This document shows positions 213 through 12,149 of a stretch of 12,149 nucleotides of DNA, one piece after another. Origin of the DNA: an uncultured Chloroflexia bacterium. GTDB lineage: Bacteria > Chloroflexota > Dehalococcoidia > DSTF01 > JALHUB01. The stretch covers positions 1 through 12,149 of the forward strand of contig CAVSBT010000022.1 of the NCBI GenBank assembly GCA_963726245.1. Direction: 5' to 3'. Within the stretch, counting starts at the first letter, position 1. Each line of letters starts with the position of its first letter. The notes below the pieces were generated by a model that made no database searches, was not told the origin of the DNA, and saw nothing but the letters and a program-made list of their open reading frames with translations. A program made the translations under genes and the position numbers.

Positions 213-758
213 TTACTTGATTCCAATGAGCTTCATCATTTCCCTATTAAACGCAGCTAAATCCATTGGCCAGCGAGAGGTTACTAGATTACCGTCAACT
301 ACAACTTCCTTGTCCTCGTATATACCACCTGCTCCTTCGATACCTTCAGGAACGTTATCATGCCAATAGGAAGTCAGATGCCTCCCTCTGACAACATCTG
401 CTGCAACAAGCGTGTATGGACCATGGCAAATCGAAGCAACTGGTTTGTTCTCTGCAAAGAAGTCCTTTGTTATCTCTACTGCTTTTGGGTGTTTACTTAC
501 AGTAAGTGGAGCACCATCTGGAAATCCACCTGGAATAATGAGTAAATCGTAATCATCAGGATTCACTTCATCAATAGTAAGGTCTGGCATCAGCGAATAA
601 CCATTTTCACCATGTATTTCTTCCTTTCTTGGTGCAGCCACATCTACTTTGACTCCTGCTTCCATAAGCCGAAAGATTGGAACATACACTTCCATGTCCT
701 CAAATTTATCTGCTGTTAAGACAACTGCCCGTTTACCTTTACTTTCACCCTTTGTCAT
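213..758 (-). CDS. pfpI: PfpI/DJ-1 family (class I glutamine amidotransferase-like) intracellular protease/deglycase
   Basis: 181 aa with FEDME, YDLLIIPGG, ASICHGP nucleophile elbow and VVVDGNLVTSR; AAGGAGGT RBS upstream of the ATG. Confidence 0.93.
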   Translation of the reverse strand: MTKGESKGKRAVVLTADKFEDMEVYVPIFRLMEAGVKVDVAAPRKEEIHGENGYSLMPDLTIDEVNPDDYDLLIIPGGFPDGAPLTVSKHPKAVEITKDFFAENKPVASICHGPYTLVAADVVRGRHLTSYWHDNVPEGIEGAGGIYEDKEVVVDGNLVTSRWPMDLAAFNREMMKLIGIK

Positions 759-810: not shown

Positions 811-1014
811 TCTGTGGGGTGCTAGTACTCCATGCCGTATGGTGAGAGCGGCGAGTCGCAAACCAGGACCGCCGAATGCCGGCAAAGGAGCGCAAACCCT
901 CTGCCTGGCAAGCAGAGGGTCGGCTGGCTGGGGTTCGGTGGTCCGCGCTGCTCGGCACCGACAGGGGCGATTCAGAGTGTGATCCCGTCAGATACGAGTT
1001 TTGCCACCGCACAA
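811..1014. repeat. Inverted-repeat-bounded element, copy A (MITE/REPIN-like)
   Basis: Left arm CTGTGGGGTGCTAGTACTCCATGCCGTAT; degenerate right arm CAGATACG-----AGTTTTGCCACCGCACA (989-1013, about 5 bp deleted); interior shares 844-906 with copy C and 901-996 with copy D. Confidence 0.8.
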
Positions 1015-1172
1015 CCTGTGGGGTGCCAATATTGCATCCGTCTCTGCGCACGTGAAGCAGCCACCCACTCGTAATTGTGGAACCGGCTTGCCGCATCGTG
1101 TAGAGGACATATCTCCGAGGCAGAGGGTTGGGGAGCCTTCCAGATACGTATGGAGTGTTGCCTCCCCACAGG
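1015..1172. repeat. Inverted-repeat-bounded element, copy B
   Basis: Arms 1015-1046 and 1141-1172 match 25/32 as inverted repeats; abuts copy A directly. Confidence 0.88.
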
Positions 1173-1204
1173 TCGCATCTTGGGTCCACACAACCTGGAT
1201 TGCC

Positions 1205-1233
1205 TTGGCAGCCGGAAACTCGAGTGCTATGAT
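1205..1233 (+). promoter_or_regulatory. Sigma70-type promoter for the GYD gene
   Basis: TTGGCA (1205-1210), 17-bp spacer, TATGAT (1228-1233) with extended TG at 1225-1226. Confidence 0.6.
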
Positions 1234-1277
1234 CGGGGCAGGAGACAGGCACGATTCTGGCTACAAGGAGGTGGGCC

Positions 1278-1568
1278 GTGGCTACCTACATAGCGCTATA
1301 CCGCTTCACCGAGCAAGGACGCAAGAACGTTTGGCGCACTGTCGAACGGGCCGAAGAAGTGCGCAAGTACAACGAGGGGCGCGGGTTCAAAGTCATTGGC
1401 ATGTACTGGACCCAGGGTCGTTACGATCTGATAGCCATCGTAGATGCACCCACCGAAGAGGCCATGGTGACAGGCCTGTTCAACATCGCCCAGGCGGGCA
1501 ACGTCACGAGCGAGACGCTGCGTGCCTTCACGGCGGAAGAGATGCAGAATATGATGGCCAAAGCCTAG
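1278..1568 (+). CDS. GYD domain-containing protein
   Basis: 96 aa; MATYIALYRFTEQG start, YWTQGRYD motif, GNVTSETLRAF end; GTG start after AAGGAGGT (1265-1272). Confidence 0.92.
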   Translation: MATYIALYRFTEQGRKNVWRTVERAEEVRKYNEGRGFKVIGMYWTQGRYDLIAIVDAPTEEAMVTGLFNIAQAGNVTSETLRAFTAEEMQNMMAKA

Positions 1569-1624
1569 TAGAAGTCGCTGCCGCGTCCCCAGGTGATGCG
1601 CCTTCATGTGGAGCTGAGCGCTCG

Positions 1625-1813
1625 CCTGTGGGGTGTCAATACTCCATCCGTGACTGGGAGAGCGGCGAGTGGCAAACCAGGACCGCCGAGTGCCGGCAGA
1701 GGAGCGCAAACCCTCTGCCTATCACGCAGACGGTTGACGGCGCTATCGTCGCCTCAGGGCTGGCCCAGATAGGGTCAAGCCCAGATACGGATGGGGTTCT
1801 GGCACCCCACAGC
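1625..1813. repeat. Inverted-repeat-bounded element, copy C
   Basis: Arms 1625-1656 and 1782-1813 match 25/32 as inverted repeats; 1658-1720 is nearly identical to 844-906 of copy A. Confidence 0.88.
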
Positions 1814-1884
1814 CTTCCCATGACTTCCGAGGAGCCAGGCACTTCTACGCGAACGACCACGACGGGCAGGCGCGAGGAGTTCTG

Positions 1885-3882
1885 ATGCCCCTAGCGCGGT
1901 ACAATCGGGGCGAGATGAGAGGGGTATCGACGGAGGCCGAGGCCCGCCGGCTGCTGGGGGGTCGCTGCTTTGAGACGCTGCGCCTCCTGGCGGCGGCCAT
2001 CATCCCCTCCGGCGGGGCGTTCCCGCTCGGTGCCGAGGACGCGGAGGTGGCGGTCCGGGTCGCGGCGGTTGCCGAGATGGGGCGCGCAGCGCGGCTGGGG
2101 CTGCGAGCAGCCCTGGCGGTGTGGGAGGCAGGCCCGCTGCTGTCGCCCCACCGCCGTCGGTTCAGCCGGCTCCCGCCTGACGACCGCCTCGCCTACACCG
2201 AGCGGGCCGCGACCTCGCGCCTGCCGTGGCGGAGCGGCGTCGTGTCGATGGTGAAGGCGCTCTGCCTGATGTCGTTCGCCTCTCACCCATCGGTGACGGG
2301 GGCGCTCGGCTTCCCGGGCCGGTGCCTCGACGAGGCAGCGCCGGACGAAGGGCCTCGCCTGAGCCCACTGGCCTACCCCGATATTCGCGGGAACGTCGCC
2401 GTGAAGGCAGACGTCTGCGTCGTTGGCTCCGGGGCGGGTGGTGCTGTGGTGGCGGCCGAGCTGGCGGAGCGAGGGCTGTCGGTGGTGATCGTCGAGGAGG
2501 GCGGGTACTTCACCCGAGACGATTTCGAGGGACCCCTCTACGACCGGGTACGGCTGATGTATCGTGATGGGGGATTGACCGCCGCCCTTGGGCCAGCTCC
2601 TTTGCCCATCCCCCTGGGGATGGCGGTCGGCGGGACGACCGTCGTCAACTCCGGCACCTGCCTCCGCACCCCCGACCGAGTGCTTCGGGACTGGGGGTCA
2701 CGATGGGGGATCGAGGGCATCAATCCGCCGTCGATGGCGCCGGTCTTCGAGCGGATCGAGCGAGCGCTCGGCGTGCGACCGGTGCCGGAGCAGCTGCTGG
2801 GCAACAACGCCCGCGTCTTTCGCCGGGGGGCGGATGCGCTCGGGTATCACGGCGAGCCGATCCGCCGGGCCATCAAGAACTGCCGGGGGTGTGGCGTCTG
2901 CACGTTCGGATGTCCGAGCGATGCGAAGCAGGCCATGCACCTGTCATACCTTCCAAGGGCGGAGGCGGCTGGGGCGGTTATCTACTCGCGCTGCCGGGTC
3001 CGGCGCATCCTTCAGAGCGACGGCAGGGCCTCGGGCGTGGAGGCGGAGATCCTGGGCGGCAGGAACAGCGTGGAGGGCGGGAGCCTGCGGGTTAAGGCGG
3101 AGATCGTCGTGCTTGCCGCGGGGGCGATTCACACGCCATTGCTGCTCATGGCCAGCGGGCTCGCGGAACGTCGGGGGCCGGTCGGGCGGCACCTGCGGAT
3201 ACACCCGGCCATCTCTGTCTCCGCTCTGTTCGATGAGGACGTGTACGCCTGGAAGGGAACGCTCCAGTCGTTTGTGGTAGATCAGTTTCAGGAGAGCCAC
3301 GGCCTGCTGTTCGAGGTGACGTCGCTGCTGCCCGGCCTGACGACGTCGCTCCTGCCCGGGGTGGGCAGATCGGCCAAGGACATGATCGCCAACTATCACC
3401 GGATGGCCTCGACGGGGCTCTTCACGGCTGACTCATCCGAGGGGCGGGTGATGCGTCTGCCCGGAGGCCGGCCGCTCACGACCTACCGGCTGAATCGGGA
3501 GGACACCGCGAAGCTGGCGTTCGGTGCCGCCGTGGCGGGAAAAGTGTTCTTCGCCGCCGGGGCGCGCACAGTGTACACGGGGCTGCCCGGCTTTCGGGAA
3601 GTGACCGTTCCCACCGATCTAGACGAGATCCCTCGCCAGCGGTGGGGAGCCGGCTCCTTCATGGTCGTGGGGTTCCACCCGATGGGCACAGCCAGGATGG
3701 GGCGGTATCCGGAGGCCTGCGCGGTGCGGCCCTCGGGCGAGGCCTACGCGCTGCCCGGCCTCTTCGTGGCAGACGCCTCGATCCTGCCGTCCTGCGTTGG
3801 CGTGAACCCACAGATCACGATCATGGCGATGGCGACCCGCATCGCGGGCGAGATCGCCCGGCAGCTCGGGGGCGAACGATGA
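1885..3882 (+). CDS. GMC family FAD oxidoreductase, long-chain-alcohol oxidase-like
   Basis: DVCVVGSGAGG FAD motif, GGTTVVNSG, CRGCGVCTFGC, FHPMGTARMG, VNPQITIMAMA. GAGGAG precedes ATG 1885; ATG 1915 is an alternative start. Confidence 0.92.
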   Translation: MPLARYNRGEMRGVSTEAEARRLLGGRCFETLRLLAAAIIPSGGAFPLGAEDAEVAVRVAAVAEMGRAARLGLRAALAVWEAGPLLSPHRRRFSRLPPDDRLAYTERAATSRLPWRSGVVSMVKALCLMSFASHPSVTGALGFPGRCLDEAAPDEGPRLSPLAYPDIRGNVAVKADVCVVGSGAGGAVVAAELAERGLSVVIVEEGGYFTRDDFEGPLYDRVRLMYRDGGLTAALGPAPLPIPLGMAVGGTTVVNSGTCLRTPDRVLRDWGSRWGIEGINPPSMAPVFERIERALGVRPVPEQLLGNNARVFRRGADALGYHGEPIRRAIKNCRGCGVCTFGCPSDAKQAMHLSYLPRAEAAGAVIYSRCRVRRILQSDGRASGVEAEILGGRNSVEGGSLRVKAEIVVLAAGAIHTPLLLMASGLAERRGPVGRHLRIHPAISVSALFDEDVYAWKGTLQSFVVDQFQESHGLLFEVTSLLPGLTTSLLPGVGRSAKDMIANYHRMASTGLFTADSSEGRVMRLPGGRPLTTYRLNREDTAKLAFGAAVAGKVFFAAGARTVYTGLPGFREVTVPTDLDEIPRQRWGAGSFMVVGFHPMGTARMGRYPEACAVRPSGEAYALPGLFVADASILPSCVGVNPQITIMAMATRIAGEIARQLGGER

Positions 3883-4451
3883 CAGCGGGGCCTCCTCTGT
3901 CGTTCCGCGAGATGCTTGAGGGCTTCCTGGGCGAGGGCCCGGACCATGAGTCTGCCTGCGCCGACGGTCGACGGCGGGCGCAGGTGTTCCGCTACCGGGC
4001 GCTGGCGACGATCAACGACTTTGCTGCGTTCGAGGCGGATCCGGACCACCCGGTAGCCCTGGAAGGGACCGTGGACTACGCTCCGCTCGGCCTCGGCCTG
4101 CCGCTGCGTGGCGGCTCGATGAACCTGTTCGTAGACCGGCCGGCGGGAAGGCGGATTCTCTACCACCTGCCGTTTGAGGCGCCGGGCGGCCGCTTCGTGC
4201 TCGTCGGCGAGAAGCGACTGGCGGGCAAGCGGCGGTGGCGGGAGATGACGACGCTGTACGCGGAGCTGTACCACCTGATCGGGCAGGGCGATCCGCTAGG
4301 TGAGCCTGTGGCCCGCGGCATTCTGCGGGTGCCCCTCCGAGTTGCCCTCGCGCTTCCCTTGACTATGAGGTCACCGGGGCGCTCGACCCTTGTAGCGCTG
4401 CGCGCGGCTCTGCGATTCCTGCGGTTCTCGGCGCGATCACTGCGGCGCTAG
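3879..4451 (+). CDS. Hypothetical protein resembling the accessory C-terminal domain of cholesterol-oxidase-like GMC enzymes
   Basis: ATGA overlap with the GMC stop gives a 190-aa protein (ORF-track start 3642 is too far upstream); FREMLEG, LVGEK, WREMTTLY and GILR motifs; family call is from recall. Confidence 0.72.
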   Translation: MTAGPPLSFREMLEGFLGEGPDHESACADGRRRAQVFRYRALATINDFAAFEADPDHPVALEGTVDYAPLGLGLPLRGGSMNLFVDRPAGRRILYHLPFEAPGGRFVLVGEKRLAGKRRWREMTTLYAELYHLIGQGDPLGEPVARGILRVPLRVALALPLTMRSPGRSTLVALRAALRFLRFSARSLRR

Positions 4452-4544
4452 CGGGGGTCGCGGGGCAACGCCGCGGGTGCGATCCCTGGGGTAGAGTCAG
4501 CGCGCCGCGCAGCATGCTCTCGCTGTGTCGCACGCCAGGTTTAG

Positions 4545-4760
4545 CCTGTGGGGTGCCAATACTCCATCCGTATCTGGAGAAGGGTGCGGGTGACATTCTG
4601 CCACCGCAAGGGCGGTGGTAGATCTTCAGAGCATCTGCCTGGCAAGCAGGGGTTGAGGGTCACCTCCCTGGGGATCGGTGGTCCGCGCGCCTCGCCACGC
4701 AGAGGGGCGATTCAGAGCGTGAGCCCCGCAGATGCGGGTGGACTTTCGCTACCCCATAGG
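4545..4760. repeat. Inverted-repeat-bounded element, copy D
   Basis: Left arm 4545-4576 equals the consensus; right arm 4729-4760 matches 24/32; 4635-4736 aligns with 901-996 of copy A; own hairpin at 4597-4622. Confidence 0.88.
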
Positions 4761-4867
4761 CCGCCCATCTGAACCACTGTGATAACATGGCCCGTTGCGA
4801 TGAGGTCGCCATCGGCCACATGCCACCGGGTGGCCTAATCGGAGAAACCGGGAATGAGAGGCTAATC

Positions 4868-6337
4868 ATGGTGCCGTCAAACGGTGAAGAGGGTAGGCTG
4901 TTTCGACAGCGGCTGTCGCGGAGGCGGTTGTTGGCGACGAGCGCTGGCGCCGCCATCGGCGCGGTCGGCGTCGGATTGGCCGCATGCTCCGAGGAAGCCA
5001 AGGATCAAGCGAAAGGGGCCAAGCCGCAAGAGGGCCTCCCCGCTCCCTCCGGCGCATCCACTCCCGCCCCTGTTGCAGAAACGCCGGCGGCGACTCCTGG
5101 CGCTGCGACAGACACACTGATGATGGGCGCTGGCTTCGGCGGCAATCCCGAGGGCATCTCTGAGGTCGCTCCGGGCACGCTTTTCTTCCCGTACTTCGGA
5201 AACGTAATCGCCCTCCTCAACGATGAGGGCATCTTGGTCGTCGATACGTCGCTCGCCGCCAACGGGGTTGAGATCGTCCAGGAGCTGCGGAAACGTACCG
5301 ACTTGCCTATCCGCAGCATAGTCTACACTCACGGCCACATCGACCACGTCACCGGCGTCGACGCCTTCCTCAGCGACGCGGCTGCGCGTGGCGACCCCCG
5401 GCCGTCCATTATCGGTCACAAGCGCATCGCCGACCGCTTCCGGCGCTATGAACGAATGGCTGGTTGGATTCGCTTCATCAACTCCATCCAGTTCGGCGCG
5501 CCCATTGGGCCCGCCGCGCCACCGCCTCCTACGCCGGTGTTCGCTTATCCCGACGTCACATATGACGACCGGACCACGGTCGGGCTCGGAGGCGAGTCCT
5601 TCGAGCTGATACACGGGATAGGCGAGACCGACGATCATACCTGGGTGTGGGCTCCCGACCGCAACCTCGTCTGCACCGGCGACTTCTTTATCTGGGCATG
5701 TCCCAATGTCGGCAACCCCTGGAAGGTCCAGCGCTACGCTGAGGGATGGGCCGACGGCCTGGAGGCGATTGCGGCCCTGCATCCGGCGATGCTCCTCCCT
5801 GGCCACGGCCCCGTTATCCAGGGCGAGGAGGCGGTGCAGACCGCCTGTCTCGATACGGCCCGCTACCTTCGCTCCATTGCGGAGCAGGTCGTCGAGCGGA
5901 TGAACCAGGGACAGTGGCTGGAGCAGATCCTGCGTGAGGTCGAGCCTCCGGCCGATCTGACTCAAAAACCGTACCTACAGCCGGTCTACGGCCATCCCAA
6001 GTTCATCGTTCAAGGCGTCTGGAGGCAATACGGGGGCTGGTACGACGGCAATCCCGCCGATTTCTTCCCGGCGCCGACCGCGGACCAGGCCGCCGAGATC
6101 GTGAGGCTGGCGAGCGCGAGCGCTCTTCTGTCTCGCGCCCGCGACCTGCAGGCGGTGGGCGACCTGGTGCTCGCCTGCCATCTCGTCGAATGGGTGTGCG
6201 AGGCGGAGCCCTCCAACGCCGAGGCCTGGCGTCTTCGGCGCGACCTTTTCCAGGCGCGCAGCGAGCGTGAGGTGAACATGATGTCTCGCAACACCTTCAA
6301 GGGGGCGGCCCAAGAGGCAGAAGAGCATCTGAGCTAA
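4868..6337 (+). CDS. Alkyl/aryl-sulfatase-like metallo-beta-lactamase-fold hydrolase, predicted Tat-exported lipoprotein
   Basis: THGHIDH, GETDDH, GDFF, PNVGNP, PGHG and GWYDGNP motifs; N-terminal SRRRLL, hydrophobic stretch and LAAC lipobox. ATG 4868 follows GAGAGG; ORF-track start 4787 is less likely. Confidence 0.88.
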   Translation: MVPSNGEEGRLFRQRLSRRRLLATSAGAAIGAVGVGLAACSEEAKDQAKGAKPQEGLPAPSGASTPAPVAETPAATPGAATDTLMMGAGFGGNPEGISEVAPGTLFFPYFGNVIALLNDEGILVVDTSLAANGVEIVQELRKRTDLPIRSIVYTHGHIDHVTGVDAFLSDAAARGDPRPSIIGHKRIADRFRRYERMAGWIRFINSIQFGAPIGPAAPPPPTPVFAYPDVTYDDRTTVGLGGESFELIHGIGETDDHTWVWAPDRNLVCTGDFFIWACPNVGNPWKVQRYAEGWADGLEAIAALHPAMLLPGHGPVIQGEEAVQTACLDTARYLRSIAEQVVERMNQGQWLEQILREVEPPADLTQKPYLQPVYGHPKFIVQGVWRQYGGWYDGNPADFFPAPTADQAAEIVRLASASALLSRARDLQAVGDLVLACHLVEWVCEAEPSNAEAWRLRRDLFQARSEREVNMMSRNTFKGAAQEAEEHLS

Positions 6338-9092: not shown

Positions 9093-10061
9093 TCAGTCAG
9101 ATTCGGATGAGGGCGCCCCTCCGCCGCATAGAGCTTCGAAGAACGCGGCCTCGCACGCAGCCTGTTCGTCCCGCGATAGCCAGCCCTGATGCCGATAGCC
9201 ACTCGCCCGGCCCACACTTGCGGCCTTCTCAGCCCACAGCGGATTGTAGGGAAGAAGGCGGGCCTCCGAGAAGCCGAGCCGCCGCAGGAAGGCGCCGATG
9301 GCCCGCAGGTTGTCCAGATCGGCGGTGAGGCCGGGAACAAGAGGCACGCGGGGCAGGAAACGCCCCGGCGCACGCTCGGCCAGGGCCGCCAGGTTCTCCA
9401 GGATGACCCGGTTGGGCCGGCCGGTGTAGCGACGGTGCAGCTCCTCGTCGACGAACTTGACGTCATAGTAGACTTGGTCCAGGTGGGGGAGAAGGCGCTC
9501 GCAGAACGTCTCCAGCCGGAACAACCCACAGGTCTCCAGAAGCGTGTGGACCCCCGCAGCCTGCAGCCGCCTCAGAAGCTCCTCGACGTAGCGGGGGAAC
9601 ATCGTCGCTTCGCCGCCGGAGAGGGTCACTCCGCCGCCGGAGTTGCGATAGAACGGCTGGTCGCGGAGAAGGAGCGGCAGCAGCTCATCGATCTCCCAGT
9701 AGCGGCCGACCCGTTTGAGGGCGCCGGTGGGGCAGAGATCGGCGCAGAGGCCGCAGCGGTTGCAGCGCGAGCGGTCGAATGCGACGGCGGGGCCGGCGCC
9801 CAGCGCTCGGGGCACGCATACGGGCATGCACTCACCGCAGGCGATGCAGTCTTTCTCCAGGAAGGCGATCTCCGGCTGGGAGTCGATGGCTTCGGGGTTG
9901 TGGCACCAGACGCAGGCCAGCGGGCACCCCTTGAAGAAGACGGTGGTCCTGATGCCCGGCCCGTCGTCCAGCGAGTTGGGCCGCACGTCCACGATCAGCG
10001 GGCGCCGTCGCTCCAGTGCGGATGAGGATGCTCCAGCCGAGGTTGCGTCGGGCCCGGCCAT
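9093..10061 (-). CDS. Glycyl-radical enzyme activating protein (radical SAM, with ferredoxin-like insert)
   Basis: SLDDGPGIRTTVFFKGCPLACVWCHNPE; CIACGECMPVC and CNRCGLCADLC; GGGVTLSGGEA; starts 5 bp after the GRE stop. Confidence 0.96.
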   Translation of the reverse strand: MAGPDATSAGASSSALERRRPLIVDVRPNSLDDGPGIRTTVFFKGCPLACVWCHNPEAIDSQPEIAFLEKDCIACGECMPVCVPRALGAGPAVAFDRSRCNRCGLCADLCPTGALKRVGRYWEIDELLPLLLRDQPFYRNSGGGVTLSGGEATMFPRYVEELLRRLQAAGVHTLLETCGLFRLETFCERLLPHLDQVYYDVKFVDEELHRRYTGRPNRVILENLAALAERAPGRFLPRVPLVPGLTADLDNLRAIGAFLRRLGFSEARLLPYNPLWAEKAASVGRASGYRHQGWLSRDEQAACEAAFFEALCGGGAPSSESD

Positions 10062-10066
10062 GGCGA

Positions 10067-12149
10067 CTAACGGTACTCCGCCCGCTCGATGAGCTCGACC
10101 TGCATCTCCGGATTGAGCTCGACGAAGTAGGCGTTGTAGCCGGAGATGCGGACCATCAGGTTGCGGTAGTTCTCCGGGTGCTCCATGGCGTCGCGGAGGG
10201 TCTCCGTGGTCACCATGTTGAACTGCATCTGCATGCCACCCAGCTCGAAGTAGGTCTTGGCATAGGTGGTGGCGTGCTCGACGAACTCGGCGTGGGGCTC
10301 GCCGGGCGCCGGCGTCAGCTTGACGTTGAAGGCGATGTTGTTCGGCATCTTCAGCGGGTCGAGGGCGGCGACGGTGCGGATGTTGTCCAGCAGGTTGGGC
10401 GACGCCGACGCCGCCGGCGTGATGCCAGGGGTGAACGCCTTGCCCCGCTTGCGGCCGCTGGGCAGCGCGCCGGAGAGAGAGCCGAAGACCACGTGGTTCG
10501 ACATGCTCCAGAAGCCGCTGGTGTAGCGGCCGCCGCGGTAGTTCTCCCGCGACTGGTACTCGTCATAGATAAAGTTGATGATCTCTTCGGCCATCTCCCG
10601 CGTGCCGGGAGCGTCGGAACCGAACTTGGGCACCCTCTTCATGATGCGGGCGTGAAGCGCCTCGTGGCCGACGAAGTCATCGCGGAGCGCCTGCAGCAGC
10701 GTTGGGAAATCCACCGCTTTCTCTTCGTACACCAGTTGCCTGATCGCCAGGAGGCTGTCGATCACGTCGGCGATGGATACCAGCGCGGAACCGGAGCTGT
10801 TGTATTTCGCGCCGCCGTGGATGACGTCGCGGCCGCTCTCAAGGCACCCCTGGATCATCGACGACAGCAGCGGTGTCGGGTGCAGGTACTGATGGGCGCG
10901 GCCCAACAGGTTGTTGTATTCCACCGATTGCCCGATCAGGTAGCCCAGTTGCTCTTTGTAGGCGGCCAGAAACGTGTCGAAGGTGTCGAAGCGAGGGGCG
11001 TCGGTGACATCGCCGGTGTGAGGGCCGACCTGCTCGCGGAGAAGCGGATGGTAGCCGTCGTTGAGCGCCATCTCCAGCGCCGCAACCGTGTTCAGGAGCA
11101 TGCAGTTGGTGTGACCGATGTGCCGGCCGCAACTGGTCGGCTCGACGCAGCCGGTGGCGCCCCAGTCCCGCGCGTCCTCCAGGGCGAACCCCTGATTGAC
11201 CAGCGTGGCGATGACCGCCTCGTCGTTGTGGATCGAGGGCGTCGAGGTGGTGATGACGTTCACTTCACAGAGGCGGCGCAGGTACTCGATAGAGTTGGCC
11301 TTCGGGTGATAGCGGGCGTTCAGGTTGGGGTCGCGCAGCGTCAGCATCTCGGCGGCCTTGAGCACGATGTAGGTCATGTCGCAGACGGCGCTGTTCCCCT
11401 CGCGGTCGACGCCGCCGACCGTCAGCGCCATGTCGGACGAGCTGCCGGCGAACAGCCGCAGGCCCACGCCCGGCACCAGGGGAAGATGGTCGTTGCACTG
11501 TAGGAGGAACGACCCCATCAGCTCGACGGCGCGGCGGATGACGGCCTCTCGTTCTTCATCGCTCCGCGCCGCAGCGGCATCGCGGAGGAAATAGGGCTGG
11601 AGCCACACGTCCAGCCGGCCGAGGGAGAGCCCCGCGTTCATGTTCTCCATGTGCAGCGCGATCTGGATCAGCAAGATCGCGTTCAGCGCCTCGTGCAGCG
11701 ACTCGGCGGGCCCGGCTGGCACCTTACGGCAGATGCGGGCCATCTCCAGGAGCTCGCCGCGCCGCGCCGCGTGGGCCGGGTCGTCGGGGTCCATCTCAGC
11801 CGCTATGGCCTCCGCCTTCTCCGCCAGCCGCTCGGCATAGCGCAGCGTCCCCTCGATGGCGATCTGGGTGGCCCGGTAGAAGTTGCGGGCCCGCTCGTCG
11901 GCGGCGGTCGCCTCGCGACGGGCCGCGTCCTCGCGAATCGAGAGCAGACCTCTCTGGAGCACCGCCGGGTAATCGGGGATGGTGTGGGAGACGGCGGCGG
12001 TCTTCCACATGAAGTAGAGGACCCAGCGCTCATCCAGTTGCTGGCAGCGCGCGTTGTTCCACTCCCGGCGCGTCCACTCCCGTATGTTGCGGTCGACCCA
12101 GTAGGGAAAGACATCCTGGTTGAGCAGGTCGACATCCTCAGTGGAGATG
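10067..12149 (-). CDS. Glycyl radical enzyme (PFL superfamily, non-PFL single-Cys type), 5' end outside the window
   Basis: SLGRLD, GCVEP Cys loop, GGMQMQFN, LMVRISGYNAYF Gly loop. The frame stays open from 12010 to the window edge (ISTEDVDLLNQDVFPYWVDRNIREW...), so 12010 is not the start. Confidence 0.95.
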   Translation of the reverse strand, partial: ISTEDVDLLNQDVFPYWVDRNIREWTRREWNNARCQQLDERWVLYFMWKTAAVSHTIPDYPAVLQRGLLSIREDAARREATAADERARNFYRATQIAIEGTLRYAERLAEKAEAIAAEMDPDDPAHAARRGELLEMARICRKVPAGPAESLHEALNAILLIQIALHMENMNAGLSLGRLDVWLQPYFLRDAAAARSDEEREAVIRRAVELMGSFLLQCNDHLPLVPGVGLRLFAGSSSDMALTVGGVDREGNSAVCDMTYIVLKAAEMLTLRDPNLNARYHPKANSIEYLRRLCEVNVITTSTPSIHNDEAVIATLVNQGFALEDARDWGATGCVEPTSCGRHIGHTNCMLLNTVAALEMALNDGYHPLLREQVGPHTGDVTDAPRFDTFDTFLAAYKEQLGYLIGQSVEYNNLLGRAHQYLHPTPLLSSMIQGCLESGRDVIHGGAKYNSSGSALVSIADVIDSLLAIRQLVYEEKAVDFPTLLQALRDDFVGHEALHARIMKRVPKFGSDAPGTREMAEEIINFIYDEYQSRENYRGGRYTSGFWSMSNHVVFGSLSGALPSGRKRGKAFTPGITPAASASPNLLDNIRTVAALDPLKMPNNIAFNVKLTPAPGEPHAEFVEHATTYAKTYFELGGMQMQFNMVTTETLRDAMEHPENYRNLMVRISGYNAYFVELNPEMQVELIERAEYR

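Follow-up and report, generated by a model that had tools for sequence, protein, structure and literature searches.

Four short non-coding elements (A to D, 160-217 bp) in the gene spacers of a 12,149-bp contig from an uncultured bacterium of the Dehalococcoidia are, with high probability, MITEs (miniature inverted-repeat transposable elements), bounded by the ~32-nt inverted repeats of a 1174-bp insertion sequence (IS) of the IS481/IS3 kind, which encodes a 346-aa transposase with a helix-turn-helix (HTH) domain and a DD35E rve domain. The window is this entire contig (C22), and the genome to which it belongs (G000, the own genome below) is a 2.68-Mb assembly of 46 contigs, 83% complete with 6% contamination. 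The assignment follows from the facts that the arms of the elements are the same in kind as the ends of intact IS copies, that the terminal codons of the transposase gene survive in B, that other copies retain the subterminal sequence of the IS left end, and that the elements are dispersed, clustered and conserved within a single Dehalococcoidia family. In one published account, MITEs are characterized as IS derivatives that lack an open reading frame (ORF) and use the transposase of the full element in trans (PMC3852290), a description that suits A, B, C and D. A first-pass annotation of the window had proposed that the elements might be recombination sites of gene cassettes, with a MITE family as the plainer alternative; the plainer alternative is the one supported here, since the arms are the ends of an IS with a DDE transposase.

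The four elements share an arm of ~32 nt and were found in the spacers from the pfpI gene to the sulfatase gene, which sustains the earlier view that one inverted-repeat family separates the gene units of this interval. Their layout is as follows (alpha, beta, gamma, delta and epsilon are labels of this analysis for interior modules).

811-1011, no strand assigned: MITE A; left arm 811-843, interior of alpha (as in C) and beta (as in D), decayed right arm at ~983-1011
1015-1172, minus strand (inverted relative to the parent IS): MITE B; arm 1015-1048, which is the IS right end, the last ~10 transposase codons (1047-1090), a tRNA-Gly-like piece, arm 1139-1172
1625-1812, minus strand: MITE C; arm 1625-1658, alpha interior, central hairpin at ~1713-1732, a short piece of the IS left end, arm 1780-1812, which is the IS left inverted repeat
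4545-4760, no strand assigned: MITE D; arm 4545-4578, variant interior, tRNA-Gly(CCC)-like segment at ~4628-4660, beta at 4655-4727, diverged right arm 4727-4760

In a repeat search, left arms came out at 810, 1014, 1624 and 4544 and right arms at 1140, 1781 and 4728; the search also delineated inward-facing pairs in B (1014-1046/1141-1173, 94 nt between) and C (1626-1658/1780-1812, 121 nt between); the arms of D (4545-4578/4727-4760) are ~148 nt apart. The interior length of 94 nt given earlier for B is exact, and that given for C (125) has to be corrected to 121; for D, 152 had been given. Eight arms in four inward-facing pairs had also been described, and seven of these are detected by an arm profile (nhmmer), which finds only the left arm in A; the eighth, the right arm of A, carries a 4-5-nt deletion and several mismatches and was seen only by eye in the alignment. 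A and B abut at a distance of 2-3 nt, and B is inverted in the alignment with respect to A, C and D. One part of A (812-920) matches C (1626-1734) at 84%, and another (915-999) matches D (4655-4739) at 80%. A second copy of B is present in the own genome (C8:1481-1617; 89.8% over 137 nt), and C is 78% alike over 73 nt to a solo copy of the IS left end (C19:77663-77735).

When 56 arms from the own genome and its relatives were aligned together with their flanks, conservation began sharply at (C)TGTGGGG and extended ~32 nt inward, the outer flanks were unrelated, and many arm copies could form a short hairpin of 5 bp (GGGGT..ACCCC). Arms without a partner and halves of elements are frequent, and behind the arm a handful of alternative interior modules occur in free combination.

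alpha: A, C and many solo copies
beta: A and D
gamma: C, and copies on contigs C19, C44, C40 and C11
delta: B, and copies on contigs C29, C30 and C40
epsilon: B, and a copy on contig C8

The parent IS is found in a related, complete Dehalococcoidia chromosome (G061), where at two loci a pair of inverted arms, separated by 1141 nt, delimits a 1174-bp element, the two being 99.9% identical; full-length copies on this chromosome number four (100, 100, 92 and 86%), and several truncated copies accompany them. The MITE arms equal the terminal inverted repeats of the IS (copies L127, at 756-1929, and L096). The IS has a single ORF of 346 aa, which matches rve_3 (E 4.5e-15) and, with 27.2 bits (E 5.9e-06), falls below the Pfam cut-off of 33.7 for HTH_32. 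Its best NCBIfam models, IS3 (107.2 bits, cut-off 160) and IS481 (NF033577; 99.5 bits, cut-off 224), are also below cut-off. Residues D172, D231 and E266 show no variation among 20 homologues, and the spacing of 35 residues between D231 and E266 is that of a DD35E triad. At least 5912 homologues of 342-346 aa (E up to 1e-10) were found, many of them on contigs of ~1.2 kb, as for collapsed IS copies; a sequence search of the PDB with the transposase gave no match. A scan of species-representative genomes with the exact arm pattern returned 38 stretches in 17 assemblies, 16 of which are labelled as Chloroflexota classes and one as Bathyarchaeia. In this last metagenome-assembled genome (MAG), labelled as Archaea, the exact arm occurs in three stretches (L095, L110 and L119), which are likely to be mis-binned Chloroflexota contigs or else a transfer.

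The interior modules connect the short elements to this IS as well. The left end of the IS runs into gamma, and its right end, the end of the transposase gene, is delta. Read in reverse, B agrees with the IS right end at 51 of 64 positions (..HNYEWVAAS vs. ..HHEYEWLAA*), and C agrees with the IS left end at 34 of 41; a copy on C19 (77661-77734) is 80% identical to IS positions 1-74, and in another (C40:2493-2653) the left-end gamma piece is joined directly to the right-end delta piece. To judge from these alignments, B is an internal-deletion derivative of the IS and C keeps a little of the IS left end. The sole trace of a transposase in the own genome lies where contig C8 begins (37-530): a C-terminal remnant, interrupted by an in-frame stop and followed by its own right arm. 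Because the copies are 78-90% alike and this broken piece is all of the transposase that was assembled, the family in the own genome is probably a fossil. The transposase would bind the arms and move the short elements in trans, and the elements may have accumulated, sometimes end to end as in A and B, within DNA that is dispensable and was gained by horizontal transfer; such a pile-up would produce the cassette-like look of the array. The earlier proposal that an enzyme encoded elsewhere acts on these sites would then stand, with a transposase as the enzyme.

The distribution of the arm is that of a dispersed family. In a census with a degenerate arm pattern (at most 3 mismatches), 16 arms were counted in the own genome, spread over 10 contigs, 16 in G009, 19 in G061, 5 in G012 and none in G011, and the same pattern reversed gave 0 in all. 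By BLAST, the arm was found in 16 of the 17 other genomes of the family, in both genomes of a second family, in 0/14 and 1/14 genomes of two more families and in 3/13 of a fifth. Copies are clustered and not evenly scattered, a part of the first-pass annotation that stands, and this is significant in three genomes: 5 of 15 neighbour gaps are below 6 kb in G009 (0.54 expected; reached in 0 of 20,000 simulations) and in G061 (0.49 expected; P 5e-5), and four of the ~13 elements of the own genome lie within 4 kb (0 of 20,000 simulations). Arrays spaced by 1-2 kb recur in relatives (G001:C156; G019:C219, C217 and C137), with genes on both strands between the elements. Parts of the stretch are contained, as contigs, in 20 of 24 sequencing runs. 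In the assembled contigs of four sediment metagenomes, depth rises sharply across the elements and the arms are where contigs break off, as many as nine contigs per run with different flanks ending at 4544-4547, which is the behaviour of a dispersed repeat.

Several results weigh against the MITE assignment. DDE elements of this kind normally make target-site duplications (TSDs), and those of the IS481 family are several bp long. A TSD of at least 3 bp flanks 1 of 18 complete elements, compared with 7.5% in mismatched pairings, which bears out the earlier observation that flanking TSDs are lacking; TSDs of at least 2 bp (6 of 18 vs. a null of 19.6%) are not convincing. The TSD is 0 bp at the full-length IS copies L127 and L096 (the 99.9% pair) and L124. 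Arms matching an IS end with normal TSDs had been named as an outcome that would tell against cassettes; the IS end was matched, but the normal TSDs were not found. The contigs of four sequencing runs, which cannot show absence, yielded no clean empty site and no new insertion. An intact transposase gene was not assembled in the 83%-complete own genome. The alpha, beta and epsilon interiors are absent from the reference IS, so that A and D have only the arms in common with it. Furthermore, homology of several gene units stops exactly at element ends, which fits recombination at the elements too. Other searches for movement were likewise negative. In the same contigs no joint removed exactly one element, as is not expected from contigs, and the joints seen were repeat-driven with short sides; the loci of G009, compared with five congeners, gave no clean empty site but just shared old copies and tRNA-linked repeats; and the same-genus genome G001 is too distant for an empty-site comparison (~70% in the GMC gene). 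Among all 92 contig ends of the own genome, inspected for collapsed IS copies, one (the left end of C8) matches the IS.

Correia elements (NEMIS) of Neisseria are an example of bacterial MITEs. The elements described here resemble MITEs in their short, ORF-less form, their IS-matching inverted repeats and their many dispersed intergenic copies, and one subtype (B and C40:2493-2653) is a plain internal deletion that keeps both IS ends. They differ from MITEs in the absence of TSDs, in interiors that, in most copies, are unrelated to the reference IS and are partly tRNA-Gly(CCC)-like, in frequent solo halves and in strong clustering. The parent IS, when set against the features compiled for the IS481 family and the IS3 superfamily in ISfinder and TnPedia, is alike in its length of ~1.2 kb, its single ORF, the combination of HTH and rve-type DD35E domains, inverted repeats that start with TGT, and IS3 and IS481 as best models. 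On the other hand, its scores are below the cut-offs (107 vs. 160 and 99.5 vs. 224 bits), three full-length copies have no TSD, and its inverted repeats are long (~32 nt) and unusually conserved across genera. The IS/MITE pair is new as a member and not as a kind, as judged without a search for a published description and without an ISfinder comparison.

The genes between and beside the elements were assigned by Pfam, and the order claimed for them (pfpI, A and B, GYD, C, GMC and partner, D, sulfatase) is borne out.

213-758, minus strand: DJ-1/PfpI gene (PF01965, E 4.9e-51), the unit left of A and B
1278-1568, plus strand: GYD-domain gene (PF08734)
1885-3882, plus strand: GMC oxidoreductase gene
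3879-4451, plus strand: 190-aa ORF without a Pfam family, overlapping the 3′ end of the GMC gene
4787-6337, plus strand: gene for an alkyl-sulfatase-like protein of the MBL fold, the unit right of D

The sharp differences in guanine-cytosine (GC) content between adjacent units, which had been pointed out before, are real: the GC profile runs at 41-45% in the pfpI unit, ~59% in the GYD unit and 68-78% in the GMC gene. Every one of the 18 family genomes contains a homologue of the sulfatase/MBL gene. The pfpI gene, at 41-45% GC inside a genome of 67% GC, shares 88% DNA identity with the end of a contig from a different genus (G006:C209) and is probably a recent acquisition. In G001, conservation at the 3′ end of the GMC gene (~70%) reaches window position 3845, and the 190-aa ORF has no match there. 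Toward the right end of the window (9093-12149), genes for a PFL-like glycyl-radical enzyme and its activase are 91% identical to those of an other-genus genome (G008) and 86% to those of two more, compared with merely 64-81% in the same-genus G001, a pattern of identities which indicates either horizontal transfer or a mis-binned contig. At its left end the window begins inside other repeats, with a perfect 20-nt palindrome at 2-21, the 22-44-nt neighbourhood of which recurs at 10 further places in the genome.

An unlikely addition to the MITE reading is that two inward-facing arms move together with the gene between them, as in a composite transposon, so that the array would consist of single-gene units which the transposase can mobilize. 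The DNA of the GYD unit (1168-1626) is 88% identical, non-coding leader included, in a genome of a different genus (G005), where decayed elements lie on both flanks. A segment of 2.5 kb in G009, between two half elements that point inward, carries genes for a luciferase-like monooxygenase, a cold-shock protein and a treble-clef zinc-finger protein, and in G061 a pair of full-length IS copies (99.9% identical), which share one orientation and are separated by 13 kb (G061:C1:1632756-1646883), with more arms at 1613.7 and 1630.7 kb, is a possible composite transposon. However, there was no case of a unit occurring a second time between the same two arms but in other surroundings. The identity of 86-91% across genera is also seen in the PFL/activase genes, which lie on this contig without neighbouring elements, and so is not special to element-flanked genes. 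Moreover, metagenome contigs have different elements at different offsets beside GYD. In four of the five contigs with identities of at least 89% (L129-L133), homology starts at 1171, the outer end of B, and it ends at 1626 in one; upstream of 1171 those four have a common 77-nt stretch where the window has the 35-nt arm of B. Downstream, an alpha-type element follows GYD at the window position in L130 and 41 nt further upstream in L131, a decayed element follows in L132, and L133 is unrelated from 1616 on; the two offsets of the alpha-type element speak only indirectly for mobilization in trans. The flanks of these contigs differ, and they offer no simple pair with and without an element. The surroundings of GYD fit repeated insertion and recombination and no clean cassette. 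A 44-nt fragment of the own genome (C19:80848-80891), away from any GYD gene, repeats at 98% the junction where the final 14 nt of the B right arm meet the initial 30 nt of the GYD leader and is a footprint of an old rearrangement.

It is also tempting to speculate about the tRNA likeness of the interiors. As measured solely by local alignments against shuffles, the interiors of A, D and B (843-985, 4578-4727 and 1048-1139) are similar to the part of tRNA-Gly(CCC) that begins at the D stem and reaches the variable loop or the T stem (z 7.6 for A, 7.7 for D and 4.1 for B), the segment in D matching 27 of 34 nt of tRNA-Gly(CCC) positions 20-54 (z 7.7); the likeness is below significance in C and in one copy from G009, and ARAGORN predicted no tRNA in the window. 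One metagenome contig contains a MITE split at the tRNA-like hairpin and fused to tRNA-Gly 3′ halves. In G009 (L041 10285-13045), a MITE is apparently split at its central hairpin, its halves being those on either side of the 2.5 kb described above, with ~27 nt of the hairpin on both sides and different loops. The minus strand of the window at 22-44 holds a 23-nt piece that is 96% identical to the anticodon loop to T stem of tRNA-Gly(CCC), and a similar 21-mer lies at 157-177. In one genus, a half element (arm and alpha) lies ~165-230 nt downstream of tRNA-Gly genes, past the terminator:

L049 9583-9847: half element near tRNA-Gly
L009 1502-1730: half element near tRNA-Gly
L088 9722-9983: half element near tRNA-Gly
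L086 5480-5711: half element near tRNA-Gly
L087 8614-8830: half element near tRNA-Gly

Two genomes have just the tRNA 3′ half left beside the half element, and each genome has numerous copies of a 46-nt tRNA-Gly 3′ half, in keeping with tRNA-targeting islands. The z-scores, the split MITEs, the half MITEs beside tRNA-Gly genes, the 3′ halves in relatives and the fragment at 22-44 next to the low-GC pfpI gene hint at a landing pad: the mimic of the tRNA-Gly(CCC) anticodon arm within the MITEs might serve as a secondary attachment site for integrative elements of this lineage that target tRNA-Gly, so that MITEs, as they spread, would create new sites for the insertion of foreign genes, and transposition and site-specific integration might together build the cassette-like arrays. 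We regard this as quite improbable.

That the elements are attC-like or other site-specific recombination sites, with the gene units as cassettes moved by a tyrosine recombinase encoded elsewhere, is very unlikely, and the first-pass annotation is not supported on this point. The recurrence of 1-2 kb-spaced arrays in G001 and G019, the lack of TSDs, the differing GC of the units, the recurrence of the GYD unit (1171-1626) at 93-95% in metagenome contigs, with homology starting at 1171 in 4 of 5 contigs and ending at 1626 in one, and tyrosine recombinase genes within a few kb of some arms (e.g., near 1.0177 Mb in G009) would all suit such sites, and imperfect inverted repeats that separate single genes of heterogeneous GC are a likeness to integron attC sites and to clusters of attC sites lacking integron-integrases (CALINs). 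By contrast, the integron integrase model TIGR02249 was passed in 0 of 18 genomes of the family, and neither IntI nor R′/R″ cores belong to the system described here, the elements of which are also longer. Inspection of the 56 aligned arms by eye, with no motif scan run, revealed no conserved core beyond (C)TGTGGGG...CCCCACA(G), in agreement with the earlier remark that attC cores are lacking, and the flanks are unrelated. The genes between elements lie on both strands, both in the window (pfpI on the minus strand, the others on the plus strand) and in the L066 array (ORFs -, +, -); the GMC unit is present in G001 with no arms nearby; and the four contigs starting at 1171 have a similar upstream stretch, not a free junction. 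The arms are demonstrably the ends of an IS and enclose a transposase.

The chance that the elements are structured non-coding RNA genes or cis-regulatory hairpins under selection, with the arms as closing stem, is smaller still. C folds as a long, stable hairpin (-52.7 kcal/mol, z -5.7), the arm with the alpha part is 85-93% conserved between genera, and all elements lie between genes. That C folds so strongly, however, follows from its inverted repeats, and transposon ends explain the stem; the interiors are a mosaic whose modules are unrelated and include a remnant of coding sequence, and solo arms and half elements are common. Rfam gave no match at E<=1 in the window and, at E<=10 in 780-1850, chance-level matches only (E >6) and no tRNA. 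Least probable of all, and close to refuted, is the earlier suggestion of REP doublets forming hairpins (REPINs) mobilized by a REP-associated tyrosine transposase (RAYT; an IS200/IS605-like Y1 HUH enzyme): inverted, intergenic pairs of a conserved ~32-nt unit, the 5-bp hairpin in many arms, the lack of TSDs and long persistence throughout the bacterial family are REPIN-like, but the search for a RAYT gave no link, since G009 (a single contig, 95% complete) has 16 arms and 0 matches to Y1_Tnp (PF01797), G003 has 2 such matches and no arm match by BLAST, both matches in the own genome are on contigs without arms (C31 and C26), and the arms bound a DDE transposase gene instead of a linked Y1 HUH gene.

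With the elements read as MITEs, the candidate for a new gene-cassette system falls away, and ordinary selfish DNA, an IS/MITE pair, takes its place. The missing TSDs, the tRNA-Gly-like core and the homology breaks at element ends would be of interest to transposon specialists if they hold, while the finding itself stays an ordinary one. For the Dehalococcoidia, the 32-nt arm is a handy family marker in MAGs from soil and sediment, and it flags regions that are prone to rearrangement.

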